NCBI GenBank assembly: GCA_965203575.1
Contig: OZ241894.1
Location: forward strand, 3,818,841-3,882,840
Reading direction: 5' to 3'
DNA from: Candidatus Aldehydirespirator sp.
GTDB lineage: Bacteria; Actinomycetota; Acidimicrobiia; Acidimicrobiales; Aldehydirespiratoraceae
DNA length: 64,000 nt
In this document: positions 43,424-61,518 of the stretch, piece after piece
Layout of the letters: each line of letters starts with the position of its first letter
How positions within the stretch are numbered: position 1 is the stretch's first letter
Notes under the pieces: model-generated
Databases searched by the model: none
Told to the model about the DNA's origin: nothing
Seen by the model: only the letters and a program-made list of their open reading frames with translations
Program-made: the position numbers and the translations under genes

Positions 43424-46400
43424 TCAGTCGTTGTCGGTGATCGTGATCTTGACCAGGACCTCGCCGTCGTTGTCGGTGTCGCCGTGCAGGGTGGCGTGGC
43501 TGGGGCGGCTGAGGCGCACGTAGAACACCTCGTTGCCCTCGCGCGCGGAGTCGGAGCAGATCCCTATCCGGATTCGCTGGGATCTGGTGCCCCGCCAGTT
43601 GTAGTTGTCGGCGGGCGGGTAGGTGAGGGTGCCCGAGCCCGATACGTAGTCGCGGCCGCGGGTGCAGCTCGTGCCGCCGGTGGCCGCGCCGGCGCCGGCG
43701 CCGTCCTCGGTGGCCCAGTCCACCACCACCGTCCGCTCGCTGACGGGTCCGCTGAGGCTCGCCTCCAGCGTCAGGGTGTGCTCGACCTCGGCGACGGTCA
43801 GGTTCTCGACCCCGATCCGGGGTGGGCTCTCGTCCTCGGTGACCGTCAGGGTGGCCGACCCGTCACCGACCACGGCATGGTCGGTCGGCACGACACAAGT
43901 GCTCGGATCATCAGACACACTGCGACATTCCCGACGGGAGTTCAGGATCAGCACGACCTCGGCGGTCTCGGCGCCCTCGTAGCTACCGTCGTCGACGGTG
44001 ACGATCTCGCAGCGGAACAGCGTCGTCCCAGCCGGAATCCAGTTGCTGCACCTTTCAAAGAAGTCGGAGAACAGGTTGTGTCCAGCGGTCCAGATCCTAC
44101 TGAAGCCGTATAGGAGCGTCTCGGAGTTGTATCTGAGACCGAACGGCAGGTCGACTTCGAGGGCGCGGTCGAGGCGCACCTCGATGTGTCCGCCGATAGG
44201 GCTGTGGGATCTGGTGGAGTCTGTCTCCTCGTCCACTACGGCGTCGTGCACGCTGATGGTCGCCTTCTCGCCGATGATGGTGCCCTCGCCGGAGCCGCCG
44301 ACGATCGAGGCGTCGCCGCTCACCACCCGGACCAGCTCCAGCCGCAGCGTCTCGTCCACCTCGATGACCTCGTCGTCGATGGTCTGCACGTCGACGGTCT
44401 CCGAGGCGTCGCGGGCGGCGAAAGTCAGCGTGCCCCGGGAGGAGGTGTAGTCGTCGGGGGCGACCGCGGTGCCGTCGACGGTTCGGTACTGCACGGTCAC
44501 CTCCGACTGCGGCGCCGGGTCGAGCTTCACCTCGAAGGCGAGCCGGCCGCCCTCGCGCACCCCCTTGGCGTCGGAGACGCTGAGCTCGGGGGTGCCGATG
44601 GCCGGGCCGTCGCGGATGGTGCCGGTCGGCGCCCGGGTCGGGGCTGTGGCGTTGGTCGCGGTCCCGAACGACAGGATGATCGTCTCGTCGCCCTCGCCGG
44701 CGTCGGCGTCGCGGGCGGTGGGCACCGAGATGGTCGCCGACAGGGACCGGGGGTCGATCACCAGGCTCCGCGACGCCGCGGTGTAGTCCGCTCCGGCGGT
44801 GGCGGTGCCGTCGACGGTGCTGTAGGGCAGCGTCACCTGCCGCAGGCTGGGGTTGTCCAGCGTCACCGCGAACTCCAGCGGCTCGCCCTCGGCGGCGTAG
44901 GCGCCGGCCACCGACAGGCTCACCGGCGGGGGGTTCTCGTCGTCGTAGACGGTGACCGAGGTCACCCGGTCGGCCGCGGCGACCCGTGCGTTGGCCTCGT
45001 TCACCAGCCGCAGCCCGAACTGCTCGGTGCTCTCCGCGGCGCCGTCGTTGACGGTGGCCACCGTTACGGTCTTGGAGGTCTCGCTGGGCTGGAACGTCAG
45101 CGTTCCCTCGGTGTGGGTGTAGTCGCTGCCTGCCGAAGCGGTGCCGGGCTCGGTGCGGTAGCCCACCGTCACCACCCGGCTGCTCTCCGCGGAGAGGGTC
45201 ACGGTGAAGGTCACGCTGTCGCCCTCGAACACCCCGTCGGGCTCGGGCGCCGACAACTCCGGCAGCGGGGTGTCGTCGTCGAGGATCGTGCCCTGCGCGG
45301 TGGGGTCGGCCATCCTGAGCCCGCTCACGGCCTGCAGCCGCAGCAGGAACGTCTCGTCGGGCTCCGTCAGCTCGTCGTCCACGAGGGGCACCGGGATCAG
45401 GGCCCGGCCCTCGCCGGGGTCGATGGAGAGCGTGTCCCCGACGTGGGTGTAGTCGAGCCCGCGGGTGGCGGCCCGCCGGCCCGCTGAGGGCGTGGCCGCG
45501 GTCACGTAGCGCACCGTCGCCTCCTGCTTGGGCGGCGGGTCCAGGTTCATCACGAAGACCATCTCGCCGGCGTCCTCGGCCGCCTCCACCGCGGCGACGT
45601 TGGCCACCGTGACCTCCGAGTCGTCGTCGTCGATGATCGTTCCGGTCAGCCACAGTCTGGCGTCGTACCAGGCCTCGCTCAACTGGATCGTCCCGTGATG
45701 TCCGCCTCCTCCGCGGCAGAGGTACTCACTTGTGCGGCACCACCACACCTCCACGATGACGGTCTCGTTCTCCTCGATCTCGGCGTCCTCGAATGTATCG
45801 ACAGCGAATCCGGTCGGGTCCACGGTATGCCAGGGTTCGAACCAACTGCTGCCAGAGGGGGCGACCTGGAAGTCCCGTCTCACGAGAGCCGTGCCCCCCG
45901 CGATCACTCTGGTCTTGTAGCGCAGGCCCTGGCAGAGCGGCCGGTCGATCTCGATCCCGAACCAGATGGGGTTGCCCTCCTCCGCGGCGTGCCACTGGGA
46001 GATCCGGTGGTCGTTGGGGAAGCCGGTGGCGGCCTTCCACTGCGGAGGGCCGTCGACGGCGGGGTCGATGCACCGGTCGTTGTCGACGATGGTGACCTGC
46101 GCGTCGGTGTCGCCGCCCAGCCTGAGCCCGCCCAGGGGATCGCTGAGCCGCACCAGGAACGTCTCGTCGTCCTCCTCGTCGTCGTCGTCGACGATGGGCA
46201 CCGAGATCGTGGCCCGGTCGGCGCCGGCGACGATGGTCAGCCGTTGCGCGGTGTGGGTGTAGTCGGCGCCGGCGGCAGCGGCGCCGTCCCCGGACTGGGC
46301 GAGCGTGGTGTAGGCCACGCTGACGGCCTCGGTGGCCGGGGCGGCGAGTTCCACGGTGAGGACGGCCGATCCGTCGCCCTCGCTCACCCGCACGTCGTTG

Positions 46401-49400
46401 AAGGCCACCACCTCCGGGTCGTCGTCGTCGACCACGGTGACGGTGAAGTCCCAGTGCCGCGAGCCCCAGTGCGACGGGAGGTCGCCGACCCAGACAGCCC
46501 GTACCCGCAGCGTCTCGTCGCGTTCGTGGCGGTCGTCGTCGTTGACGGCCAGACGGCCGGTGATCGAGGCGGGCGCCGCCGCGGCGAAGGTCTCGAGCCG
46601 GTCGGCCGCGGCCACGTCGGCGGTGGCGCCGTCGGCGAAGGTGTAGCCCGTGCCGACGTCGGTGCTCTCGGGGGCGACGGTGGCGGTGACGCCGGAGAAC
46701 TCCAGCCGCCAGGTCGCGGCGGTGGTGGTGCAGCCGGCGACGAGCGCGAACGACGGCGTCCCCGCGTCCTCGGCCACCCTCAGCGGAGTGAACGACACCT
46801 CGGGCCGGCCGTGGGTCGAGTCGCCCGGGTCGACGCAGCCGCTGCCGATCGTGCCCGTCCCGACCCGGTTGCGCAGCAGGGCGTTGGACGACGGGTTCAC
46901 GAACCGCAGCTGGAAGTGCTCGTCACCCTCGTCGCGGCTGTCGGTGAAGGTGGCCACCGTCACGGTCTTGGACGTCACGCCGGCCGCGAAGTCCAGCCGG
47001 TCCGGCGACGCGGCCAGCACCCGGCGGTAGTCGGCGCCGGGGTCGGTCCTGGAGTCGCCGCCGGTGGCGGTGAGATCCTGGGTGTGGTACCGGACGCTGA
47101 CCGGCTCGCCGCTGGCCGTCGGGCTGCCGCCGGCGTTCACCAGGCTCACCGTGAACACCAGGTCCTCGCCCTCGTCGACCGGTCCGGCGTCGGACACCTG
47201 CAGGAACACCTCGGAGTCGTTGTCGGTGATGGTGCCCGTCGCCGACACGGCGGACGCGCTGCGGTAGCGCGCCGGCGCTCCCGCCCCCCAGCCGGCCTCG
47301 AAGCTGAAGGTCTCGTCGCCCTCGCCGATGTCGTCGTCGATGAGGGCGACCTCCACCGACACGCTCTGCCGGCCCGCGGCCAGGGTCGTCTCGCCGCTCG
47401 CGGCGGTGTAGTCGCTGCCCGACTCCGCGGTGCCGTCGGCGGTGCGGTAGCTGACGGGCAGGCTGGCGCCCTCGCACACCGGCTGGTCGATCTCGACGGT
47501 GAAGCTCATCGTCGCCTCGTCCTCCCGCGCCGTCCGGTCGAGCACGGTGATCGCCGGCGCCGGAGCGTTGTCGTCGCCGGGGTCGACGCAGGCGGCGTCG
47601 TCGTTCAGGATCGTGCCCGCCACGTAGCGCTCCGCGAAGGTGAGACTCACCGACGGGTTGTTGCGCTCGGTCACCGTGGCGGCCGACACGAGGTACAGCA
47701 GCAGCGTCTCGTCTTCCTCGGGGCCGGTGTCGCCGCACAGTTGCACCGTGGCCGTCGCCCACCGGTGCCCCTTGGGGATGTTCACCGACGCCCTCGTGGC
47801 CGGGATGACGAAGTCGGCGTCGCCGGAGCAGGACCGTCCCCCGGTCGCCCCGTTCGCGGGGCCGACGGGCCTGTAGATCACGGTCACCTCGCGGCTGTTG
47901 GCATAGGTCAGCCTCACCGGGAACCTCAGGACCCCGCTGGGAACCGTGACGGTGCCGTCGCCCTCGGCAACGGAGGCTCTGTCCACTCTCACCTTCGACG
48001 TGTCGTCGTCGACGATAGTGACCACCGTCTCCACCGGGTCGGCGCTGTTCCAGTTCGCGGGGTTGCCCGATCCGAAGAAGTCCCAGGAGAGCCTGAAGGT
48101 CTCGTCGGGCTCGTCGACATTGTCCTCGATGAGCGAGAAGTAGTGAGTCCAGACAGAATCGAACGCGGGCTGATTGTGTACAGCCTCCATTGAATAGAAG
48201 TCTTCACCTTGGACGGCGGTGATAGGGCTTGCCCGGATTCGGAGGCCGACCGTCTCGCACGGCCGGGGATCCATTCTTACGATCGCTACCACATCCCCGC
48301 CCTCCTCGACGGAACGGTCGGTCGCCGCGACTAAGCGGGGCGGGGAATGGTCGTCGGAGACCGGGAGGCACGGGGCGCGGATCACGCCCAGCGCGCTGGA
48401 GTCGCCGAGCCGGACGTTGGCGTCGACGTCGGGGGCGACGGGGACCGACAGCCTCAGCAGCAGCCGCTCGTCGCCCTCGGTCTCGTCGTCGGTGAGGGTG
48501 GGCACGGCCACGGTCTGCTCCAGCGGATCGCCGGGGTTGAAGGTCAATCGGCGGGATACCGCGGTGTAGTCGGCGCTCTCTCCCTCGGGGACGTCGTCGT
48601 GGGGCACCGCGGCCAGGTTGGGGGTGCCGCTGAAGGTCCTCGCGTCGACGGTCACCACCTTGGCGCTGGCCGCCGACAGGCGCACCGTGAAGGCCAGGTC
48701 CTCGCCCTCGCCGGCGGAGGCGCCGACCCCGTCGGGGCACGGCTCCAGCTTCAGGTCCTCGTCGGGGCAGTCGACGACCTCCACTGTGGGCTCGTCGTCG
48801 TTGTCGGCGATCTGGGCCTGGGCGAGGCTGGCGCCGACGGTGGCGTTCTGCACGCTGTCGGCGTCGAGCCGCACGGTGAACGTCTCTTCGTCCTCCTCGT
48901 CGAGGCTGTCGTCGCAGATCACCACGTCGAAGGTCTCGGTGGCCGGGTCGGCGTCGGCGGGGTCGAACTCGATCCAGGCGCCGGCGGCGGCCTGGTAGTC
49001 GGGCGCCGGGTCGGCCCCGCAGTCGCTGCCGCCGGTCGCGGTGTCGCTCTCCTGCCCGAAGGCGACCTGCGCTCTCACCACCCGGCCGCTGGGGTTGTCG
49101 AGCCTGGCGGTGAAGGTGGCCGTGGCGGACTCGGCCACCGCCGCGGCGGGGGCCTCGAGGCTCAGGGTCGGCAGGGGGTCGTCGTCGGTGATCGTGCCCA
49201 CCGCGCAGTCGTCGTCGTCGTTGGCCGACTCGTCGGCCGGGGTGTTCGGATCGTCGGGCACCTCCGCCGGGCACGGCGACGACGCGCCCGACGACGCGTC
49301 GATGCCGTCGAAGCCGCTGAGCTTGAGGGTGAGCATCTCGTCGTCGTCCTCGTCGAGGGTGTCCTCGCAGGTCTCCACGGTGACCGTCACGGTGTCGGTG

Positions 49401-52400
49401 CCGGGGCCGAAGCTCGCGGGAGTGCTCGGCAGAGACACGAAGTCCGGCGGCGAGTCCCCGCTGCAGGCGGTCCCGCCCGTCGCAGCCCCCTCGGCCGCGG
49501 TCTGGTAGTCGACGCTGACCGTGCGGCCCGCCTCAGGGGTCAGGTTGAGGGTGAACTGCAGGTCCTCGCCCTCGCCCGCGGCGGCGTCGGACACCGTGAG
49601 CTGCGGCTCGTCGTCGTCGTCGACGATGACCGCGATGGCGGTGCCGCCGCCGGCGAGGCTGCCGTAGTCCGGCGCTCCCAGCCGCAGCAGGAAGGTCTCG
49701 TCGTGCTCGTAGAGACCGTCGTCGGAGACCGCCACGGACACGGTGGTGCTGTCCGAGCCGGCCGGGATCGTCAGCGAGCTGTTGGGCGCCGCCGAGGTGA
49801 AGTCGGCGCCGGCGGTGGCGGCCTCCTCGCCCTCTGAGGGGCGCTCGGCGGTCCAGTAGGGCGCGGTCACCGCCTGGCTGGCCTCCAGCGGGGTGGCGGT
49901 GCCGGCGATGAACAGCCCCACCGTGAACACCGCCTGGCCGTCGTCCTCGCCGACGCACACCTCGTAGTCCGGGAAGCTGTCGTCGGTGCAGGTGTCCAGC
50001 AGGCGCAGCTCGTGCTCGTCGTCGTCGACGATCCTGCCGTCGGCCCGGTAGTCGCTGGGGTGGCGGCGGTAGGTGGGATCCGGTCCCGACGGAGTGTCCA
50101 GCCACACCTCGAACAGCTCGTCGCGCTCGCCCACCGGGGCGTGCGGGGCGCGGCCGTCGTCGACGGACTGCACATCGAGTGTCGCGCTGGTGCTGCCCTC
50201 GTCGATCGTCACGGTGCCGCTTGCGACGTTGACGTAGTCGGCGCCGGTGTCGGTGGCAAGGTCCGCGCCGGTGGCGGTGCCGTAGGGCAGGTCCGCCGAG
50301 GACTTCTGCCCTGTTCGCCACCCCACCACCACGTCGCGGCCGCTCTCCTGGCCGAGCCGCACCGTGAACCTCAACGTCCCGCCCTCGACGGCAGACGACC
50401 CCACCCCGTCGGGGCAGGGATCCAGCCCCAATGCAGCGTCAGGACAGACGACGATCTCCGCTGCGGGCGGATCATCGTCGTCGGCCACGGTGCCCGTGCC
50501 CGCCGTGTCGGCGTCGACGGTCGCCTCCGGGTCGGCGGGATCCCCCGGCACCAGCCTCAGGACCACATCGAAGGTCTCCTCCGCGTCCTCGTCGAGACTG
50601 TCGTCGAAGGTGGGCACCACGAAGGACGCCGTGCGGTGGCCGACCCCGAAGACGACCTCGCCGGTGAGCTGCGTCGCCGGAGGCGGCGGCGGCACCACGA
50701 GGTCGCCGTCGACGGTGGTGCCGTGCACCACGCTCCACTCCGCGGTGACGGGCCGCTGCGCGGCCACCGGCGATGTCCCGTCGGTCGCGCTGACCAGACT
50801 CACCTCGAACCTCAGCGGCGTGCCCTCGGTGCCGCGGGCGTCGCCGACTCGCAACAGCGGCGGGGCGTCGTCGTTGACGATCACGCCCACCGCGCACCTG
50901 TCGTCGGCGTAGTCAGACTCGTCGGCCGGGGTGTTCGGATCGTTGGGCACCTCCGCCGGGCACGGACCGGTCTCGCCGCCGGGATCCGCGAAGCCCGCGT
51001 TGGAGGCCCCCAGCCGCAGCACCACCGTCTCGTCCTCCTCGTCCAGGTCGTCGTCGATGATGGTGACCCCTGCCTGCTTGGGCCCGGTCTCGCCGGGTCC
51101 GAACCGCACCTCGCCCTGCGGCGACGGCGTGCACGCCACCCCGGTGTAGTCGTCGGGCTCGGCGGCCGTGCCGTCCTCGGTGCAGTACTCGACGGTAACC
51201 CCCGTCGCCCTGCCGCTCGGGGCGCTCAGTGCCACGTCGAAGCTCAGCACGGCACTGTCGGCCTCGGTCACGGAGGCGTCCGAGACGAGCACGTCCGGCG
51301 GATCATCGTCGTCGATGATGGTGCCCCTGCCGGGGCTCGTGTCGATCCAGGCGCTGTCGCTCGGGTTGCACAACTCCACCAGGAACGTCTCGTCGTCCTC
51401 GTCGAGACCATCGTCGTCAACCTGCACGGTGAGCGTCGTGCGGCCGGTGCCGTCCCTCGGGATGACCACCTCGGGCGAGCCGGCCGGGCAGGGGCCGGGC
51501 TCGCCGGTGTAGTCCGCCCCGGCTGTGGCGCGGCGGGCGGTCGGGTTGTCGTCGTCTCTGGTGAAGTAGCGCACGGTCACTTCGGGCGTCTTGGGTCCCA
51601 CGCGCGTCACCGTGAACACCAGCGACCCGGCCGGGTCGCCCGGGTTCGACCCGCACTCGGTGGGATCGGCGTTCTCACAGGCGCGGGCGTCGCCGACCGA
51701 CAGCCCCGGCTCGTCGTCGAGGATCGTGCCCACCGCACAGTCGTCGCGGTCGGTTCCAGCTTCGGCCTCGGCCGGGCAAGGGGTGCCTCGACCGACGGTG
51801 CCGGAAAACTGGGCACCGGAGGCTTGCAGGCGCAACTCGACCGTCTCGGGGCCCTCGCCGCAGCGGTCGTCGTCGATCGTCACCGTGACGTCCCGCGGCC
51901 CGGTCTCTCCCGGCCCGAAGGTCAACGTGTCCCCCGCTTTGACGTAGTCGCGGTCGGTGGTGTCTCGGCAGGTGTTGAGCAACGTGGCCGTGCCGTCGGC
52001 GGTCTCGTAGTCGACCGTCACCTCCACTCCGGCCGCGGCGGCCAGCCCCACCTGGAATGTCAGCTGGACGCCGTCGCCCTCGGTCACGGGCGCCGCGTCG
52101 GACACGGTGACGGTCGGCGGATCGTCGTCGTCGCGAATGGTGCCGATGGCGCTGCGCCGGGCCTGGTCCAGGTTCAGCAGGGCAGGATCGGGCGGCTCGC
52201 CCAGCACCAGTTCCAGGGTCTCGTCGGCCTCGAAGAGGTCGTCCCGGACGACCTCCACCTCGATGGTCGCCCCGGTATTACCGACTTGGATCGTCACCGT
52301 GGACGGCGCCGGCAGCGTGTAGTCGGAGACTTCAGTCGCAGGGTTAGGGCCGGTGCCGGTGATGGTGTAGGGCAGCACCACCTCGGCGGTGGCCGGCGCG

Positions 52401-53053
52401 TCAAGGGTCAACGTGAAGATGAGCTTCGGCGGGTCGCCGGGGTCTGCCAGGTCGCCCTCGACCACCACAGCGCCGCTCACGCCTGCCTTGGGCGCGCCCT
52501 GCAGGACGGCCACCTCCGACGCCTGCCCGCGGAACTCGACGGTGGGGAACACCCCCCGCAGCGGCGCCACCGCCCCGTCGGTCTCGCACACGAAGCTCAC
52601 CCCCAGCACCCCGATCCCGCTCACCTCGGTGTTGGCCGCCGTCACCCCGCTGGAAGGGTCCGGGACCAGGTCGTCGCGGACCAGCCACTCCTCCTCCAGG
52701 ATCCCGGTCTCGCCCGGCACCGGCCGCGGGCCGCCGATGCACAGGAAGTCCAGCCCGGGCCGGGCCGACAGCACGTCGGTCACCAGGTCCTCGCATTCCG
52801 CCTCCCGGTCCTCCTCGCAGGTCAGCGCGGCCGCGGTGGCCGCCTCCTCCGCGGCCAGGTCGGTCATCAGCGCGGCCCGGCCGCCCCGGCCCGCCCACAG
52901 CACGAACAGCGCCAGCAGCATCAGGACCGGCACCAGCAGCACCACCTCCAACGAGGTCGAGCCCGCCTCCCCCCGCCGCGTCCGGCGGGCCTGCAAGGCC
53001 TCCCCGCCCACCGGCGCCGACCGCGTCACGCCAGCCCGGCCCCGGCGCGTCAT
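43424..53053 (-). CDS. Giant (~3,200 aa) protein: TadE-like pseudopilin N-terminus fused to ~23 Calx-beta-like modules
   Basis: An uninterrupted ORF runs 43424-53311. The class-III-like signal RRGEAG/STSLEVVLLVPVLMLLALFVLW has Glu at +5. About 23 modules end in D-rich motifs (e.g. IIDDDLDEEDETVVLRL, IVDDDDEEDDETFLVRL) with ..Y.T.DGTA..G.DY.. cores. ATG 53053 is chosen; ATG 53137 and the ORF-track start codon at 53311 are alternatives. Confidence 0.8.
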   Translation of the reverse strand: MTRRGRAGVTRSAPVGGEALQARRTRRGEAGSTSLEVVLLVPVLMLLALFVLWAGRGGRAALMTDLAAEEAATAAALTCEEDREAECEDLVTDVLSARPGLDFLCIGGPRPVPGETGILEEEWLVRDDLVPDPSSGVTAANTEVSGIGVLGVSFVCETDGAVAPLRGVFPTVEFRGQASEVAVLQGAPKAGVSGAVVVEGDLADPGDPPKLIFTLTLDAPATAEVVLPYTITGTGPNPATEVSDYTLPAPSTVTIQVGNTGATIEVEVVRDDLFEADETLELVLGEPPDPALLNLDQARRSAIGTIRDDDDPPTVTVSDAAPVTEGDGVQLTFQVGLAAAAGVEVTVDYETADGTATLLNTCRDTTDRDYVKAGDTLTFGPGETGPRDVTVTIDDDRCGEGPETVELRLQASGAQFSGTVGRGTPCPAEAEAGTDRDDCAVGTILDDEPGLSVGDARACENADPTECGSNPGDPAGSLVFTVTRVGPKTPEVTVRYFTRDDDNPTARRATAGADYTGEPGPCPAGSPEVVIPRDGTGRTTLTVQVDDDGLDEDDETFLVELCNPSDSAWIDTSPGRGTIIDDDDPPDVLVSDASVTEADSAVLSFDVALSAPSGRATGVTVEYCTEDGTAAEPDDYTGVACTPSPQGEVRFGPGETGPKQAGVTIIDDDLDEEDETVVLRLGASNAGFADPGGETGPCPAEVPNDPNTPADESDYADDRCAVGVIVNDDAPPLLRVGDARGTEGTPLRFEVSLVSATDGTSPVAAQRPVTAEWSVVHGTTVDGDLVVPPPPPATQLTGEVVFGVGHRTASFVVPTFDDSLDEDAEETFDVVLRLVPGDPADPEATVDADTAGTGTVADDDDPPAAEIVVCPDAALGLDPCPDGVGSSAVEGGTLRFTVRLGQESGRDVVVGWRTGQKSSADLPYGTATGADLATDTGADYVNVASGTVTIDEGSTSATLDVQSVDDGRAPHAPVGERDELFEVWLDTPSGPDPTYRRHPSDYRADGRIVDDDEHELRLLDTCTDDSFPDYEVCVGEDDGQAVFTVGLFIAGTATPLEASQAVTAPYWTAERPSEGEEAATAGADFTSAAPNSSLTIPAGSDSTTVSVAVSDDGLYEHDETFLLRLGAPDYGSLAGGGTAIAVIVDDDDEPQLTVSDAAAGEGEDLQFTLNLTPEAGRTVSVDYQTAAEGAATGGTACSGDSPPDFVSLPSTPASFGPGTDTVTVTVETCEDTLDEDDDEMLTLKLSGFDGIDASSGASSPCPAEVPDDPNTPADESANDDDDCAVGTITDDDPLPTLSLEAPAAAVAESATATFTARLDNPSGRVVRAQVAFGQESDTATGGSDCGADPAPDYQAAAGAWIEFDPADADPATETFDVVICDDSLDEEDEETFTVRLDADSVQNATVGASLAQAQIADNDDEPTVEVVDCPDEDLKLEPCPDGVGASAGEGEDLAFTVRLSAASAKVVTVDARTFSGTPNLAAVPHDDVPEGESADYTAVSRRLTFNPGDPLEQTVAVPTLTDDETEGDERLLLRLSVPVAPDVDANVRLGDSSALGVIRAPCLPVSDDHSPPRLVAATDRSVEEGGDVVAIVRMDPRPCETVGLRIRASPITAVQGEDFYSMEAVHNQPAFDSVWTHYFSLIEDNVDEPDETFRLSWDFFGSGNPANWNSADPVETVVTIVDDDTSKVRVDRASVAEGDGTVTVPSGVLRFPVRLTYANSREVTVIYRPVGPANGATGGRSCSGDADFVIPATRASVNIPKGHRWATATVQLCGDTGPEEDETLLLYLVSAATVTERNNPSVSLTFAERYVAGTILNDDAACVDPGDDNAPAPAITVLDRTAREDEATMSFTVEIDQPVCEGASLPVSYRTADGTAESGSDYTAASGETTLAAGRQSVSVEVALIDDDIGEGDETFSFEAGWGAGAPARYRSASAVSATGTITDNDSEVFLQVSDAGPVDEGEDLVFTVSLVNAGGSPTASGEPVSVRYHTQDLTATGGDSRTDPGADYRRVLAASPDRLDFAAGVTSKTVTVATFTDSRDEGDEHFQLRFVNPSSNALLRNRVGTGTIGSGCVDPGDSTHGRPEVSFTPLRVAEDAGTPSFALVAGCTTTAATWRLEFSGVTATVAPESTDVGTGYTFADGATADVAAADRLETFAAAAPASITGRLAVNDDDRHERDETLRVRAVWVGDLPSHWGSRHWDFTVTVVDDDDPEVVAFNDVRVSEGDGSAVLTVELAAPATEAVSVAYTTLAQSGDGAAAAGADYTHTAQRLTIVAGADRATISVPIVDDDDEEDDETFLVRLSDPLGGLRLGGDTDAQVTIVDNDRCIDPAVDGPPQWKAATGFPNDHRISQWHAAEEGNPIWFGIEIDRPLCQGLRYKTRVIAGGTALVRRDFQVAPSGSSWFEPWHTVDPTGFAVDTFEDAEIEENETVIVEVWWCRTSEYLCRGGGGHHGTIQLSEAWYDARLWLTGTIIDDDDSEVTVANVAAVEAAEDAGEMVFVMNLDPPPKQEATVRYVTAATPSAGRRAATRGLDYTHVGDTLSIDPGEGRALIPVPLVDDELTEPDETFLLRLQAVSGLRMADPTAQGTILDDDTPLPELSAPEPDGVFEGDSVTFTVTLSAESSRVVTVGYRTEPGTASAGSDYTHTEGTLTFQPSETSKTVTVATVNDGAAESTEQFGLRLVNEANARVAAADRVTSVTVYDDENPPPVSLSVAGAYAAEGEPLEFAVTLDNPSLRQVTLPYSTVDGTATAGADYTAASRSLVIDPRSLSATISVPTARDADAGEGDETIILSFGTATNATAPTRAPTGTIRDGPAIGTPELSVSDAKGVREGGRLAFEVKLDPAPQSEVTVQYRTVDGTAVAPDDYTSSRGTLTFAARDASETVDVQTIDDEVIEVDETLRLELVRVVSGDASIVGGSGEGTIIGEKATISVHDAVVDEETDSTRSHSPIGGHIEVRLDRALEVDLPFGLRYNSETLLYGFSRIWTAGHNLFSDFFERCSNWIPAGTTLFRCEIVTVDDGSYEGAETAEVVLILNSRRECRSVSDDPSTCVVPTDHAVVGDGSATLTVTEDESPPRIGVENLTVAEVEHTLTLEASLSGPVSERTVVVDWATEDGAGAGAATGGTSCTRGRDYVSGSGTLTYPPADNYNWRGTRSQRIRIGICSDSAREGNEVFYVRLSRPSHATLHGDTDNDGEVLVKITITDND

Positions 53054-53220
53054 GCCGCCCCGCCCACCGGCGCCGACAGCGTCACGCCGGCCCCGACCCC
53101 ACGGCCACACGCCGTATCGGCCGGTGAGGCGCCGCATCGCGCCCCCACGGCCCTGCCCCGGGCCCGGCCGACCGGGACCACCGGGTGCGCCGCCGCATCG
53201 CGCCCCCACGGCCCTGCCCC
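53002..53220. repeat. Short direct repeats in the 5' leader region of the giant ORF
   Basis: CCCCGCCCACCGGCGCCGAC[C/A]GCGTCACGCC occurs at 53002 and 53058. GCCGCATCGCGCCCCCACGGCCCTGCCCC occurs at 53131 and 53192. Confidence 0.7.
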
Positions 53221-53324
53221 GCCGCCGGCGGCCCGCCAGTCCCCGCGTCAACGGGCCGGACCGGCCCGCGACCGCCGCACCGGGGGGCGTGCTCACCGGT
53301 CCGGTCCCCAACCTGGCCGCCCGC

Positions 53325-56693: not shown

Positions 56694-56709
56694 CCCGCCC
56701 CGCCCGCCT

Positions 56710-56824
56710 CCCGGCCCCCGATGCCGCGGCCGGCGCCAGCGGCAGCCAACTCGGCCACCATGCCGCCCCCCTTCGCGCAAGCTGCACCCCGGCCCCCGAT
56801 GCCGCAGCCGGCGCCAGCGGCAGC
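56710..56824. repeat. 37-bp direct repeat x2, 78-bp period, in a convergent intergenic region
   Basis: CCCGGCCCCCGATGCCGC[G/A]GCCGGCGCCAGCGGCAGC occurs at 56710-56746 and 56788-56824. Confidence 0.75.
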
Positions 56825-56899
56825 ACACGGCCCGTCGGGCGCGCTCCGGGTCGCCTTCTGCCGGCCGCTGTCCGCGCCTGCGGGGCAAGGGGCCATCGT

Positions 56900-57304
56900 C
56901 TAACCCCCAAGGCCCGATCTCGGCGTGACCACGCACCTCGCCGGGACGTCATCGGCGAGGTCGCCCGGCGTATTGTCGCCTGTGGGCGGGGACCAGACCG
57001 CTCTCGAAACGACATCGCCGAAGTCGTCCTGGATGCCGGGGTCGCAGCGACTAGAGAAGCCCGAGTCCACGTACAGGTTCCCGTCTCTGACCGCCGCGTC
57101 GAAGGCGGCCTGGGCGTCGGAGGCCACGAAGGCGGCGGCTATGTCGGCGTCTATCAGCCGGACCGCGGGGTCGGCGGGCACCTCGGCGGTGTCGTCGATC
57201 ACCCGCTGCACGGCCAGCACCGAGACCGCGGCCAGGCCCGCGACGGCGCCCACGATCAGCAGCCACTCCAGGGTGATCAGCCCGGCGTCGGCGGCGGCGC
57301 TCAC
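56900..57304 (-). CDS. Flp-type (class III signal) pilin-like protein, unusually long (134 aa)
   Basis: The GTG start gives MSAAADAG/LITLEWLLIVGAVAGLAAVSVLAV. This is a G/xxxxE[WY] processing motif plus a hydrophobic helix, as in Flp/DUF4244-type pilins. A ~90-aa C-terminal extension follows. Confidence 0.65.
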   Translation of the reverse strand: MSAAADAGLITLEWLLIVGAVAGLAAVSVLAVQRVIDDTAEVPADPAVRLIDADIAAAFVASDAQAAFDAAVRDGNLYVDSGFSSRCDPGIQDDFGDVVSRAVWSPPTGDNTPGDLADDVPARCVVTPRSGLGG

Positions 57305-57343
57305 GGTGCGGGCCTCACGGCAGGCTGGTGATGCCGCCGCCGG
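57260..57343. repeat. 84-bp direct repeat, copy 1 (tadC 3' end / pilin 5' end junction)
   Basis: Matches 58135-58218 with 2 mismatches at an offset of exactly 875 nt. Confidence 0.9.
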
Positions 57344-57431
57344 CGGGGGGAGATCTCGGCCGTGGGTTGTCGAGCACTGTCTCGGCGCGGTTCAATGGTT
57401 CTGTGGCCGGACACCTCCGAGAGGGACGCGC

Positions 57432-57722
57432 ATGACCAACGCACATACACCGTCCCGCTCACGCCGTCCCCGAGACGAGACGCACCGGCTCGGCGACGAG
57501 ATCTATGAGCGCGGCATCCGGGCGCAGGTCGAGGGCGCCCACCGCGGGCAGATAGTCGCGATCGATGTGGACAGCGAAGACTGGGCCATCGCGGACAGCG
57601 CACGGGTCGCAGCCCAGCGCCTGCGGGCGCGGCAGCCGGACGCCGAGGATGTCTGGTTGGTCCGGGTCGGGTACCGGGCGCTGCGCAGCTTCGGGGCTGG
57701 AGCCCTGAGGAGCACAGAGTGA
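57432..57722 (+). CDS. Small partner protein of the retropepsin-like protease (antitoxin-like position)
   Basis: 96 aa from ATG 57432. The core is HRGQIVAIDVDSEDWAIADSARVAAQRLRARQPDAEDVWLVRVGY. Its stop overlaps the GTG of the next gene (GTGA). Confidence 0.55.
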   Translation: MTNAHTPSRSRRPRDETHRLGDEIYERGIRAQVEGAHRGQIVAIDVDSEDWAIADSARVAAQRLRARQPDAEDVWLVRVGYRALRSFGAGALRSTE

Positions 57723-58090
57723 TCGAGGGGGCCGTGAACGCCGGCCGCGAAGCAGTTGTGACCCTCGCGCTACGAGGACCGGCGGGGCAGGCCAGCGAGG
57801 TCGAAGCCGTCATAGACACGGGATACAGCGGGTACCTGACCCTGCCGCCGGAACTGCCGGCGGAACTGGGGCTCGCCTTCGTCGGCAATGGCCACGCGTA
57901 CTTGGCCAACGACGCCGAGGTCGAGTTCGACGTCTTCGACGTGACGGTCCTCTGGGACGGCCGGCCCAGAGAAATCGAGGCCGACGCGACGGGAAGCACG
58001 CCGCTCGCGGGCATGCTGCTACTGGACATGCATGACCTGAGCATCGAGGTGCGGCCCGGCGGGCGGGTGCTGATACAGGCCGCGGCATAG
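57719..58090 (+). CDS. Clan AA (retropepsin-like) aspartic protease
   Basis: 123 aa. The catalytic motif AVIDTGYSGYLTLP (D-T-G) and the single-lobe size match bacterial/archaeal retropepsin-like proteases. Confidence 0.7.
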   Translation: MIEGAVNAGREAVVTLALRGPAGQASEVEAVIDTGYSGYLTLPPELPAELGLAFVGNGHAYLANDAEVEFDVFDVTVLWDGRPREIEADATGSTPLAGMLLLDMHDLSIEVRPGGRVLIQAAA

Positions 58091-58134
58091 CACGGCACAG
58101 AACGGCCGGGCTGTCGCGGTCGTCCGGCGGCCGG

Positions 58135-58218
58135 CAGCCACTCCGGGGTGATGAGCCCGGCGTCGGCGGCGGCGCTCACGGTGCGGGCCTCACGGCAGGC
58201 TGGTGATGCCGCCGCCGG
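58135..58218. repeat. 84-bp direct repeat, copy 2 (contains the true tadC stop and a 15-codon remnant of the pilin 5' end)
   Basis: See 57260-57343. The minus strand reads GTG AGC GCC GCC GCC GAC GCC GGG CTC ATC ACC CCG GAG TGG CTG, i.e. MSAAADAGLITPEWL. Confidence 0.9.
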
Positions 58219-59011
58219 TGAGCGACGTGAACGGCGGGTAGACGAGGATGCCGGCCAGGGCGAGGGCCACGCCGGTGGCGGGCACCACGATGATCTGGGC
58301 CCGCCGGGCCGCCTTCTCGCGCTCGCGGCTGGTGCTGTCGCGCCACAGCGTGTCGGCGGCCACCAGGATGGCCTCGGCCATGCGGGTGCCCCGCTCGGCG
58401 GCCAGGCCCAGCGCGGAGACCGCCGGGGCCAGGCTGTGGATGCCGTAGCGGCTGACTACGTCGCCCAGGCCCTCCCAGACGGGGCGGCGGTCCTGCTGCG
58501 CGGCGAGCAGGAACCGGTGCAGCAGCCGCCAGCTGCTGCGCTCCCCCGCCCGGGCCGCGGCCAGCATCGCCACCGACGGGTCCACCCCGGCCGCCACCTG
58601 CTGGGCCACCAGCGCGATCCACACCCTTATGACCTGGTCGATCTCGGTGCGGGCCTTCTTGGCGGTGTCGCGCACGCCCAGCATGGGAAGCAGCCAGCCG
58701 GCCGCTCCGGCGGCGACGGCCAGCAGCGCCGCCCCCACCGGGCCCCGTCCCGTCACCACGCTGACGACCGCGCCGACGGCCAGGCCGGCCACGAGGCCGC
58801 CGAAGCGCTGCAGCGAGTAGGACTCCGGGGTGATGCCGGCCAGGCGCAGGTTCTGCTCCTCGCCCTCCTTGATGGTGGGCAGCAGGTCGCGCAGCGTCTC
58901 GCCGGGCGTCTGCGAGCTGCGGCTGCGCGTCGGCGGCCCCACCACGCCCACCGCGATCAGTACGACGCCGGCGAAGAACACCAGCGCGGCCCCCAGCACC
59001 AGCGGGCTCAT
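58190..59011 (-). CDS. tadC: Type II secretion system F-domain protein, TadC-like
   Basis: 273 aa. N-terminal TM segment, central cytoplasmic T2SSF-like domain, and C-terminal TM segments (AQIIVVPATGVALALAGILVYPPF). Confidence 0.75.
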   Translation of the reverse strand: MSPLVLGAALVFFAGVVLIAVGVVGPPTRSRSSQTPGETLRDLLPTIKEGEEQNLRLAGITPESYSLQRFGGLVAGLAVGAVVSVVTGRGPVGAALLAVAAGAAGWLLPMLGVRDTAKKARTEIDQVIRVWIALVAQQVAAGVDPSVAMLAAARAGERSSWRLLHRFLLAAQQDRRPVWEGLGDVVSRYGIHSLAPAVSALGLAAERGTRMAEAILVAADTLWRDSTSREREKAARRAQIIVVPATGVALALAGILVYPPFTSLTGGGITSLP

Positions 59012-59030
59012 GCCGGGTCCTGCCAGCGGC

Positions 59031-59161
59031 GCGGCGGCCGTCCGGGCGCCGGCGGGCTCGCCGGGGACCCCCGTGCGGGGCGCGGCGGCCGTCCGGGCGC
59101 CGGCGGGCTCGCCGGGGACCCCCGTGCGGGGCGGGGCGGCCGTCCGGGCGCCGGCGGGCTC
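59031..59161. repeat. 51-bp tandem repeat, ~2.6 copies, filling the tadB-tadC intergenic space
   Basis: The unit GCGGCGGCCGTCCGGGCGCCGGCGGGCTCGCCGGGGACCCCCGTGCGGGGC starts at 59031, 59082 and 59133 (1 mismatch). The last copy runs into the tadB stop codon. Confidence 0.85.
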
Positions 59162-60062
59162 ATATCGGGTCCTTGGCCCGGCTGCGGCGGCGGGGCGGCA
59201 CCAGCACCGAGTTCTCCGTGCGGACCACCGAGTGGTACACCAGGAACGACGTCGACAGCAGCAGCAGGCCCGCGATGCCTACGAACACCAGCTGGCCGGT
59301 GCCCTGCTCGTAGGGCTCGAAGTAGGCCGGGTTGTTGCGGTACATCATCAGCACCACCCCGCCGGCCAGTCCCAGCAGAGCGATGGTCTGGGTCCAAAGC
59401 TGAACCACAGCTTCAGTCTTGGAGCGGTGCAGGTCGACCACGTCGCCGATGCGGCCGCACAGGTCGAACAGCGGGTCGGCCACCGCGCCGCCTGAGGTGG
59501 CGGCCATGCGCAGACCGGCGGCCACCTCGGGCTCCCACACCGTGCCCGCGGCGGCGAGGGCGTCGAGGGCCTCCTCGAGGCCCTCGAGCTCGGCCGTGAC
59601 CGCGACGTGCTCGACGATGGCCCTGATCTCGGCGGGGGCGTGCTCGACGCTGCCGCGCAGCGACTCGACCAAACTCGAGCCGGCCCGGGCCAGCTCGGCC
59701 AGCTGGCGGCTCCACAGCGACCACGCCAGCGCCTGGCGGGTCTGGCGGCGCCGGCGGGCGGGCGCGGCCATGAACGGCGGCAGCAGCGCGCCCAGCCCGC
59801 CCAGCAGGACCATCATCCCCAGCAGGCCCGTCGCGGTCCAGCCCAGGATCCCGCCGGCGACGGCCGCCACCAGCTGCACCGCCACCAGCGGGCTGACCCG
59901 CCGGGCGCCCGCGGCCCGAGCCGACGCGCGCCGCGCCGCGGCCCGCTCCGCCCGGCCGTCCTGGTCCTTGCGCCGCACCCGGAGGCGGCTCAGCGCACCC
60001 GACAGCGCCACCAGGGCCACCCCGGCGGTGGCCAGCACGCCGAAGATCAGGCCTTCAAGCAT
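59160..60062 (-). CDS. tadB: Type II secretion system F-domain protein, TadB-like
   Basis: ATG 60062 (MLEGLIFGVLATAGVALVAL..). T2SSF-like topology. It overlaps the cpaF stop by 8 nt. The longer ORF-track start is created by the 75-bp repeat. Confidence 0.75.
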   Translation of the reverse strand: MLEGLIFGVLATAGVALVALSGALSRLRVRRKDQDGRAERAAARRASARAAGARRVSPLVAVQLVAAVAGGILGWTATGLLGMMVLLGGLGALLPPFMAAPARRRRQTRQALAWSLWSRQLAELARAGSSLVESLRGSVEHAPAEIRAIVEHVAVTAELEGLEEALDALAAAGTVWEPEVAAGLRMAATSGGAVADPLFDLCGRIGDVVDLHRSKTEAVVQLWTQTIALLGLAGGVVLMMYRNNPAYFEPYEQGTGQLVFVGIAGLLLLSTSFLVYHSVVRTENSVLVPPRRRSRAKDPI

Positions 60063-61518
60063 CCCGGCCCCCCGCGTCGGCGCCGTCGCCGAGATCATCA
60101 CCGAAACCGTCGCCGGGAACCGCCCACGGCTCCGCGGACCGGCCCCCCGCGTCGGCGCCGTCGCCGAGATCATCACCGAAACCGTCGCCGGGAACCGCCC
60201 ACGGCTCCGCGGACCGGCCCCCCGCGTCGGCGCCGTCGCCGTGCTCGGGCCAGTCGGAGACGTCGAGGCCGCCCTCGGCGAGGCGCTCGATCACCTCGGG
60301 GCTGCGGGGCCGGCCGAGCAGGGTCATGGGGCCGCCCCGCTGGCGGCGCCCGAACACGTCGTGCATCTCGAAGCGGTCGCCGTCGGAGCTGAGCACCTCC
60401 GAGATGGTGTTCACGCCCCGGAACCCGGTGCGGGGGTCGCCCCGCAGGTGCGCCACCAGATGGATCACCTCGGAGGCCTCCTGCACCAGCGCCGACTGGG
60501 CGGGCGCGCCGATCGCGCCCAGGCAGTAGCGCACCAGCCGGGCCATGGCCTGGCGGGGCGACGAGGCGTGGATCGTGGCCATCGAGCCGTCGGACCCGGT
60601 GCCGCACGCGGAGAGGAACGTGGCCGCCTCCGGGCCTCTCAGCTCGCCCACGATCACCCGGTCGGCGCCCGAGCGCAGCGACCGCTTGGCCAGCTCCTCC
60701 ATGGTGATCTCGCCTGAGCCGTCGCTGTTGGCCTCGCGGGTCTCCACCGCGAAGGTCAGCGGATGGGACTGGTCCAGGAACAACTCGAAGGTCTGCTCGA
60801 GGGTGCACACGATCTCGCTGGGGCCTATCTCGGCCAAGAGCGCCCGCAGCAGGGTGGTCTTGCCCGCGCCGAGGGCGCCGCACACCAGCATGTTGACCGG
60901 CGCCGGGGGGCGCACCGCGGCCCGCAGGAAGTCCGCGGCCTGCTGCGACAGCGACCCGCTGTCCACCAGGTCCTCCAGCCGGATGGCCCGGTGACGGTGA
61001 CAGCGCACCGTCAAGAACGGCGTCCCGCACACCGCCATCGCCGCGAAGATCCGCTCACCGGTGCGCAGCCGCAGATCCAAGAGCGGCGCCGACTGGTCGA
61101 AGCGGCGCCCGGTCTGGCCGTGGGTGGTGGCCAGATGCGCGATGTAGCGGACCATGTCGTCCTCGTCGGCGAACACCGGCTCGCGCACATGCTCCTGACG
61201 GCCGCCGGTCAGGCCCAGCACCGCATAGTCCGGCCCGAACACGTAGATGTTCTCCACGTCGCGGCGGCGCAGGAACCGCTGCATGGGGCCGGCCCCCAAC
61301 AGGGCCGCCAACTCGTCGAACACCCACTCCAGGTCCTCGTCTTCGAGCATCCGGCCCGTGGAGTCGAGCGCATGGGCCTCCCGAACCCGTATAGCCTCAG
61401 CGGCCATGGCATGACAAGCCTCCGACACGCCCTCAGCGTCGGCGGAAGCACCCAACCGGAACTCCCGGACCTCCGGCAGCACCGCCTCCCAGATCTCCTC
61501 GCGCAACGCCACCGTCAC
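60055..61518 (-). CDS. cpaF: CpaF/TadA-type secretion ATPase with a duplicated acidic C-terminal tail
   Basis: Walker A VCGALGAGKTTLL, Walker B/Asp box DRVIVGELRG and His box GSMATIHA. GTG 61518 overlaps the TadZ-like stop (GTGA). The 814-aa ORF-track version adds a G/F/C low-complexity artefact. Confidence 0.85.
   Translation of the reverse strand: MTVALREEIWEAVLPEVREFRLGASADAEGVSEACHAMAAEAIRVREAHALDSTGRMLEDEDLEWVFDELAALLGAGPMQRFLRRRDVENIYVFGPDYAVLGLTGGRQEHVREPVFADEDDMVRYIAHLATTHGQTGRRFDQSAPLLDLRLRTGERIFAAMAVCGTPFLTVRCHRHRAIRLEDLVDSGSLSQQAADFLRAAVRPPAPVNMLVCGALGAGKTTLLRALLAEIGPSEIVCTLEQTFELFLDQSHPLTFAVETREANSDGSGEITMEELAKRSLRSGADRVIVGELRGPEAATFLSACGTGSDGSMATIHASSPRQAMARLVRYCLGAIGAPAQSALVQEASEVIHLVAHLRGDPRTGFRGVNTISEVLSSDGDRFEMHDVFGRRQRGGPMTLLGRPRSPEVIERLAEGGLDVSDWPEHGDGADAGGRSAEPWAVPGDGFGDDLGDGADAGGRSAEPWAVPGDGFGDDLGDGADAGGRDA
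60066..60240. repeat. Perfect 75-bp tandem repeat, 2.33 copies, in frame in the cpaF 3' end
   Basis: Units start at 60066, 60141 and 60216. Copies 1 and 2 are identical by eye. They encode GDGADAGGRSAEPWAVPGDGFGDDL x2.3. Confidence 0.9.

Follow-up and report, generated by a model that had tools for sequence, protein, structure and literature searches.

A partner and retropepsin-like protease gene pair between two copies of the tadC-pilin junction in a Candidatus Aldehydirespirator genome

We analyzed a stretch of 64,000 nt with a GC content of 70% (C1:3818841-3882840, referred to as the window) from the single-contig 3.93-Mb genome (G000) of Candidatus Aldehydirespirator sp.; positions without a contig name are those of the window. 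The minus-strand tad-type pilus operon of this window contains 790 bp of inserted DNA (57344-58133) between its tadC-like and its pilin-like gene. The insert is bordered by two copies of an 85-nt direct repeat and carries, on the plus strand, a gene for a 96-aa partner protein followed by a gene for a 123-aa retropepsin-like (clan AA) protease. The comparisons show that this unit was acquired horizontally and was inserted with a target duplication of about 85-100 bp. The best joint explanation, which we regard as probable, combines this event with capture at a chromosome break and with a cargo that resembles a toxin-antitoxin (TA) system. How small TA-like cassettes move is in most cases not known. 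At the tadC-pilin junction a polarized event has been kept, for which the empty, the filled and the decayed site are all on record.

The two repeat copies, at 57259-57343 (left) and 58134-58218 (right), were found by a repeat search and rechecked base by base. They are 98% identical (2 mismatches) and have a spacing of 875. An earlier note, made from the letters of this DNA, had described a pair of 84 bp with the same mismatches and offset; the pair is present and is one base longer. On the minus strand, each copy begins with the tail and stop codon of tadC (CC followed by GGC GGC GGC ATC ACC AGC CTG CCG TGA; 29 nt with 8 full codons and the stop), continues with the 10-nt spacer GGCCCGCACC and ends with the GTG start codon of the pilin gene and 14 more codons (plus 1 nt). 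The base-level reading thus bore out the content that had been proposed for the repeat. The left copy holds a duplicated tadC tail, the spacer and the first 15 codons of the functional pilin gene, while in the right copy the tadC tail and stop are the functional ones, and the spacer is followed by a pilin 5' remnant of 15 codons (58135-58179). This remnant is not fused after tadC, as the earlier note had stated, since it retains its own GTG behind the tadC stop and the spacer. It opens a spurious frame of 292 codons antisense to the cassette (57301-58179). Only 0.5% of the 700-bp segments of this genome have a 20-mer common to both 300-bp flanks. Because of this low background, and because two congeners have a single-copy, insert-free site, the flanking repeat is not a product of chance.

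These two congeners are G002 and G010. In both, the tadC stop, the spacer and the pilin start are contiguous, with one copy of the 85-bp sequence and no insert, so that the empty site, which the earlier note had hoped to recover by alignment with cassette-free relatives, was indeed obtained. The cassette is also absent from the tadC-pilin junction of the more distant congeners G024, G003, G019, G018, G020 and G005, and we therefore consider the empty site as the ancestral state. Compared with the empty sites, each repeat copy has a single private change. In the left copy this change is synonymous in the working pilin gene (CTC to CTG), and in the right copy it converts Leu to Pro in the pilin remnant.

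The insertion was also present in other assemblies. The sequence L136 (ENA ERZ23495321) has the same junctions and the full cassette, while L134 (ENA ERZ23495174) and L135 (Logan SRR13587046) have the same insertion junctions with an internally deleted cassette. L134 and L135 appear to represent one NGUY21-1 contig that was assembled by two pipelines. Their deletion of 348 bp corresponds to 57697-58044 of the window; it removes the last codons of the partner gene and nearly all of the protease gene and leaves a partner of 97 aa. In L134 and L136 the homology of the right-hand repeat runs about 9-17 bp further (ACGAT[G/C]AGCAGCC, with GCCC before it). This extension implies an original duplication of about 94-102 bp, the edge of which has since decayed in the window by A-to-G and T-to-C changes. 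The tadB-tadC side of L136 is 98.7% identical to the cassette-free G002 and its far side is window-like, a pattern by which L136 is to be read as a recombinant. The inserted allele is thus a presence/absence polymorphism within the species complex, which has been moved by homologous recombination or lost via recombination between the repeats.

The degree of divergence between L134 and the window varied along the locus. Over L134 4357-4650 (NGUY21-1 scaffold_9348), compared to 57366-57696 of the window, the partner coding sequence is 99% identical (263/265), with 100% identity between codon 4 and the deletion. Upstream of it, 12 mismatches fall within 66 bp, and the identity of the flanking tad genes is about 95%. 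This distribution of mismatches suggests either a recent exchange of the cassette or an unusually fast change of the 5' region.

The genome harbors a second partner/protease cassette at C1:975264-976199 (L051 1299-2233), located between an hsdR-like and an hsdS-like gene. On either side it has a copy of a 51-bp repeat (94% identity, spacing 884), which runs from the last 14 codons of the hsdR-like gene across the ATGA stop/start overlap into the first codons of the hsdS-like gene. The hsdR-ATGA-hsdS junction is uninterrupted in G018, G010, G003 and G024. The insertion is common to G005, G020, G013, G007 and G009, with a right repeat that is down to 13 bp in G005. A genome-wide search revealed a further insertion, which consists of a gene for a putative endonuclease of the Uma2 family (PF05685; C1:311224-312227). 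Its 58-bp target duplication spans the last 17 codons and the stop of the neighboring gene, and a clean empty site is found at G010:C1:1896614-1897371.

We rejected a vapBC locus (FitA-like RHH and PIN; C1:2278498-2279581) as a fourth event, as its 99-bp flanking repeat is dispersed and no empty site was found for it. The copies of this repeat that flank vapBC are 91% identical and belong to a dispersed intergenic element, which occurs elsewhere in the genome and in several congeners. Repeats of 160 bp at L086 and of 59 bp at L095 sit in repeat-rich non-coding DNA and could not be shown to be target duplications.

A rare footprint of this kind was described by Kobayashi's group as "insertion with long target duplication" for restriction-modification (R-M) complexes (Nobusato et al. 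2000, Gene 259:99; Furuta et al. 2010, NAR 38:2428, PMC2853133). Furuta et al. demanded a repeat of >30 bp that is not a dispersed element of the genome, an insert of <20 kb free of mobile-element genes and an empty site in a relative, and the reported repeats measured 46 to about 420 bp (PMC2853133). At the tadC-pilin junction we found the 85-bp repeat, the 790-bp insert without mobility genes and the empty sites in G002 and G010; a repeat of >30 bp together with an empty site was also found at hsdR-hsdS (51 bp) and at the Uma2 gene (58 bp). As in the R-M class, a small unit without transposase, integrase or terminal repeats is accompanied by a target duplication of variable length, and a relative with the empty site has the repeated sequence once. 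In R-M insertions the repeats frequently extend across a start or stop codon, which spares the target genes (PMC2853133), and here, too, start- or stop-spanning repeats leave the target genes whole. In contrast to the R-M class, the cargo is a partner/retropepsin pair in two events and a lone Uma2 nuclease gene in one, and the insert is far smaller (0.79 kb). The footprint class is thus known but obscure, and a partner together with an aspartic protease is a new kind of cargo for it.

Within the insert, the partner gene occupies 57432-57722 (ATG at 57432, stop at 57720-57722) and the protease gene 57719-58090 (stop at 58088-58090), with the GTG start of the latter lying in a GTGA overlap. Our reading of the open reading frames confirmed the coupled pair of a 96-aa and a 123-aa, DTG-containing product on the strand opposite to the tad genes that the earlier note had reported. 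The region upstream of the pair (57366-57431) is conserved with Chloroflexota cassettes, and DNA homology to the loci L054, L056 and L059 begins at 57366. A likely -35/-10 pair, called by eye, is TTGTCG ... TTCAAT (TAGAAT in relatives), and in the conserved block GTTGTC... is followed by GGTAGAATGG in relatives and by GGTTCAATGG in the window. A consensus scan of 56700-58400 for promoters and terminators returned neither.

The protease matched the TIGR03698 profile (clan_AA_DTGF) with E 1.9e-15 and 57.1 bits, compared to a cut-off of 57.35 bits, and with 56.7 bits in a six-frame search of the genome. No match to Pfam was obtained. The product carries VIDTGYSGYLTLP and the catalytic residues D33-T34-G35; among 75 homologues D33 never varies, and the conservation of T34 and G35 is 90% or more. 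The structural model (pLDDT 95.3) adopts a single-lobe retropepsin beta-barrel fold, and the top Foldseek matches were the proteases of HTLV-1 (2b7f), Rickettsia (APRc, 5c9b) and EIAV (1fmb), with a probability of 1.00 and TM scores of 0.6-0.7. The modelled fold and the profile match, with a score just under the cut-off, support the protease-family similarity of the DTG protein that had been supposed. Between the window and L136 the dN/dS of the protease is 0.155, compared to 0.47 for the partner, 0.58 for tadC and 0.81 for the pilin gene, which indicates that the protease is under purifying selection.

Like TIGR03698 proteins and bacterial retropepsins such as APRc (PDB 5c9b), the cassette protease has a single lobe, a length of about 120 aa, a DTG motif and a predicted fold that superposes on APRc and on the HTLV-1 and EIAV proteases. 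Unlike them, it has no membrane anchor in the sequence as read; an N-terminal hydrophobic segment is absent from both cassette proteins by sequence reading, with no signal-peptide predictor run. It also differs by its constant position behind a dedicated partner gene. Ten TIGR03698-like genes are present in the genome, and besides the protease of the window cassette one has a partner; the eight stand-alone genes do not. These eight (ALVDTGS-type; C1:43878-48803, C1:1889218-1889969 and other sites) form a subfamily distinct from the DTGY-type cassette protease, and several of them are arranged in adjacent tandem pairs. A cluster of a different kind is found at G016:C1:3961130-3963039 (L037/L050), where three partner and two protease genes lie within 1.9 kb in divergent orientation, with an orphan partner in the center.

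The model of the partner (pLDDT 81) shows a helix (residues 14-33), two strands (41-45 and 51-54), a second helix (57-67), a further strand (74-78) and a disordered tail (85-96). An alignment revealed a conserved GYRAL..SFGxG motif that leads into the C-terminal tail, ..GYRALRSFGAGALR... A profile search for the partner, which the earlier note had proposed together with that for the protease, found no curated family in Pfam, NCBIfam, PADLOC or PHROGs. A sequence search of the PDB gave nothing significant, and the model had no significant match among PDB or viral folds. The partner resembles Pfam DUF5678 in its small size; it showed no match to the DUF5678 profile even at E 10, and weak matches were seen in 2 of 77 homologues (best E 0.0097). 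A literature search on DUF5678 returned one unrelated paper. The partner family is nevertheless large, with 3,422 representatives at E <=1e-3, including some two-domain fusions, and the partner/retropepsin pair is very widespread and uncharacterized.

For the origin of the cassette, relatives were collected with one genome per species, which gave 120, and taxonomy was taken from the best 80 of the 120. Nearly all of these 80 are metagenome-assembled genomes (MAGs) of Dehalococcoidia/Chloroflexota, and a few belong to Gemmatimonadota, Latescibacterota or Acidimicrobiia. The nearest full-length cassettes lie in Dehalococcoidia/Chloroflexota MAGs and have proteases with 78-83% aa identity. At the DNA level the similarity to the Dehalococcoidia loci is 77-81% and is confined to 57366-58091, i.e., to the region from the promoter to the stop codon. 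Cassette copies of congeners are at most 70% identical to that of the window. Since the closest full-length cassettes are found in another phylum, the comparison indicates that the cassette was acquired horizontally. The base composition of the insert is not anomalous at the level of GC content (69.9%, genome mean 68.8%); its GC3 is modestly lower (0.83-0.85) than that of the neighboring genes (0.90-0.97).

The distribution of the two genes bears on their function. The partner gene lies directly upstream in 90 of 92 protease matches, and at most loci with extracted coordinates the end of the partner frame coincides with the start of the protease frame, with the 4-nt overlap recurring. Loss of the genes was counted over 25 congeners. 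These contain 26 partner genes, of which 15 are followed by a full protease gene, 4 by a truncated one and 7 by none (11/26 without intact protease), while all 18 protease matches, fragments included, adjoin a partner gene. Synteny suggests about ten independent events of protease loss among the congeners. The L134 allele represents a further loss of the protease with retention of the partner, in this case at the window locus itself. Moreover, the distribution of the cassettes is multi-copy and patchy, with tandem arrays. The asymmetry in favor of orphan partners, the protease-deleted allele, the multiple copies, the relatives in another phylum and the footprint of the R-M type strengthen a TA-like or selfish nature of the pair circumstantially and do not prove it.

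The pair resembles type II TA systems (VapBC, HigBA, MazEF) in that two small co-oriented genes with a 4-nt overlap form one operon behind a putative promoter of their own, in the many copies per genome, tandem arrays and horizontal spread, and in the frequent occurrence of the first gene as an orphan, with the second gene never alone. It differs from them, as the putative toxin would be a dimeric aspartic protease and not an RNase, kinase or gyrase poison, and as no RHH, HTH or AbrB DNA-binding fold was recognizable in the partner. The pattern of loss points to an arrangement with the protease as the toxin and the partner as the antitoxin. The cassette would then most likely work as a type II TA or addiction pair. 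The protease dimer would be the harmful component, and the partner would be made first from the common mRNA and hold it in check. With its C-terminal tail, which is conserved and disordered, the partner may occupy the substrate groove of the protease or block its dimerization. One-sided loss and a natural protease-deletion allele thereby provide a concrete hypothesis on which of the two genes is the toxin.

An ordinary cellular function of the protease, with the partner as its substrate, pro-peptide donor, chaperone or regulator and with passive movement of the pair by recombination, would be in line with the purifying selection, which fits a useful gene, and with the lack of a recognizable antitoxin-type fold in the partner. 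Characterized bacterial retropepsin-like proteases, such as APRc of Rickettsia (PMC4140852) and secreted enzymes that Pseudomonas needs for stress tolerance (PMC11957051), are also not presented as toxins in titles and abstracts. Against such a function stand the patchy, multi-copy distribution with tandem arrays, the nearest relatives in another phylum, and the strongly one-sided loss in which the protease is gone and the partner is kept. In addition, neither protein has an N-terminal hydrophobic segment as read, and the footprint is one that is common to selfish R-M genes and Uma2. We therefore consider an ordinary protease that is not part of an addiction module as rather unlikely.

The neighboring junctions of the tad operon gave information on how the insertion may have arisen. 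A tandem duplication of 51 nt (2.6 copies, 98% identical) spans the tadB stop and the tadC start (59028-59161), and a second one of 75 nt (2.4 copies, 100% identical) spans the ATPase stop and the tadB start (60064-60241). Relatives have at most one recognizable copy of either unit. Both duplications belong to a set of 37 young tandem duplications of 40-130 bp in the genome; they lie within 1.2 kb of each other and adjoin the cassette. The genome also encodes Ku. Furuta et al. proposed that a DNA-breaking activity of the cargo is involved in long target duplication (PMC2853133). The finding of a protease cargo at two sites and of Uma2 at a third speaks for host break repair, rather than a nuclease of the cargo, as the source of the duplication. 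Under such a mechanism, a staggered chromosome break or a switch of template during replication would be followed by filling in of both ends, e.g., in the course of Ku-dependent end joining, and a fragment of foreign DNA would be captured between the filled-in ends. The same process without captured DNA would produce simple tandem duplications of 40-130 bp, as they are common in this genome, and selection would then retain those events that leave both neighboring genes whole. A single process of this kind would explain the cargo-free duplications, the insertions and the length scale common to both. A more far-reaching version holds that a cargo-independent capture pathway of the host, which also gives rise to the tandem duplications, is exploited by selfish cassettes at operon junctions with no damage to the genes on either side, and that the pair represents a new class of TA or addiction systems in which a dimeric aspartic-protease toxin is checked by the conserved C-terminal tail of its partner. 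We regard this version as possible and put it forward tentatively.

The same duplications would also fit a course in two steps, in which about 100 bp across the junction were at first duplicated in tandem, which created a neutral spacer, and the cassette arrived later by illegitimate recombination. Young tandem duplications at the other two tad junctions and at 37 sites genome-wide, tandem repeats in the pilin leaders of congeners and a cargo-free duplicate of 33 bp of the pilin 5' end in G003 are all in favor of this order of events. On the other hand, the insert of each of the three verified events lies exactly at the join of two full repeat copies and not within one copy, and a duplicated allele without cargo was not found among the 5 related sequences that we compared. 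We consider the two-step course as unlikely.

Several observations weigh against capture of a TA-like unit as we favor it. On the side of the mechanism, the sequence is compatible with one-step capture and with duplication followed by insertion alike. Long flanking repeats were found for 3 of 73 non-tandem Chloroflexota cassettes and for 9 of 292 control segments; we rejected them as a family-wide trait, as there was no enrichment over the controls. The events in this genome are the only ones for which the footprint is on record, and it may be a property of the host rather than of the cassette. On the side of the cargo, library and fold searches revealed neither a recognizable DNA-binding antitoxin fold nor a curated family for the partner, and no match to a TA or defense library was obtained in PADLOC or PHROGs. 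The TIGR03698 score of the protease is 0.25 bits under the cut-off. Orphan partners could have a function of their own, and toxicity, neutralization, binding and proteolysis are all putative.

Site-specific integration would require that the 85-bp repeats are attL and attR of a non-autonomous element that is mobilized by an integrase in trans. Long end repeats that restore the ends of target genes are indeed typical of integrase insertions (PMC2853133). Still, an integrase is absent from the insert and from the neighboring tad genes; the insert has no recombinase, terminal repeats or att-like core, and its two open reading frames matched no mobility family in the profile libraries. Related cassettes elsewhere share no flank or core outside of the region from promoter to stop, and the two cassettes of this genome have unrelated targets with repeats of 85-100 and 51 bp. 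We conclude that integration of this kind is very improbable. An assembly artefact from collapsed or chimeric reads, which the earlier note had named as a possible refutation, can be dismissed, because the genome was assembled into one 3.93-Mb contig, the two copies of the repeat are not identical (2 mismatches) and the junctions recur, with lineage-specific substitutions, in three further assemblies, which stem from two samples and two assemblers.

The DNA between the cassette and the repeat copies (22 bp at the left end, 43 bp at the right) had no match, and no source for it was found in the same genome. We also considered a duplication that reaches the protease stop; the similarity of the 43-bp right filler to the pilin gene of the window was not significant (z 0.8), and this candidate was rejected. 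In L134 only the last 13-17 bp adjoining the repeat resemble the pilin gene (z 3.8). A search with 57200-58300 against the genome demonstrated that the repeat is not dispersed; the matches were the locus itself, the paralogous cassette and three short matches to the pilin part. The latter (72-102 bp, 75-78% identical; C1:2377975, C1:2872235 and C1:3884782) may represent paralogous pilin genes.

The tad-type pilus operon of the window comprises genes for an SAF-domain CpaB-like protein, a T2SSE ATPase, and tadB-like, tadC-like and pilin-like proteins. The tadB-like gene (59160-60176, minus strand) has a profile match to T2SSF. The tadC-like gene (58190-59011, minus strand) is intact and encodes 273 aa; its T2SSF match (E 4.2e-4) is under the cut-off, and its product has 93% aa identity to the orthologues of G002 and G010. 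The Flp/DUF4244-like pilin gene (56900-57304, minus strand) is intact as well, with a GTG start, 134 codons for amino acids, the motif G/LITLEWLLIVGAVAGL and a weak DUF4244 match (E 0.054). In congeners the pilin orthologues come after tadC. Both tadC and the pilin gene, including the start of pilin translation, survive since the duplication spans the junction of the tadC stop and the pilin start. The earlier note had stated that the pilin gene was separated from its operon. This applies to its distance, as it now lies 875 bp from tadC; its start codon and the native 39 nt upstream were preserved by the duplication, and the class-III-type leader is retained as well. A convergently oriented unit with a putative promoter of its own now splits the pilus operon.

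The pilin gene evolves fast (dN/dS 0.81 and dS 0.375 compared to L136, with a dS of 0.067 for tadC). In G003, downstream of tadC (L018, C1), about 33 bp of the pilin 5' end, GCAACGACAGCGGGTTGGTCACC[C]TGGAGTGGC, occur a second time without cargo some 60 bp ahead of the real start, and one of the copies has a 1-nt deletion. The pilin leaders of G024, G019 and G021 contain tandemly repeated segments. Downstream of the tad genes, the list of open reading frames includes a minus-strand frame of 3,295 aa (43424-53311) with many repeated acidic modules (..DDD..ETF..L..).

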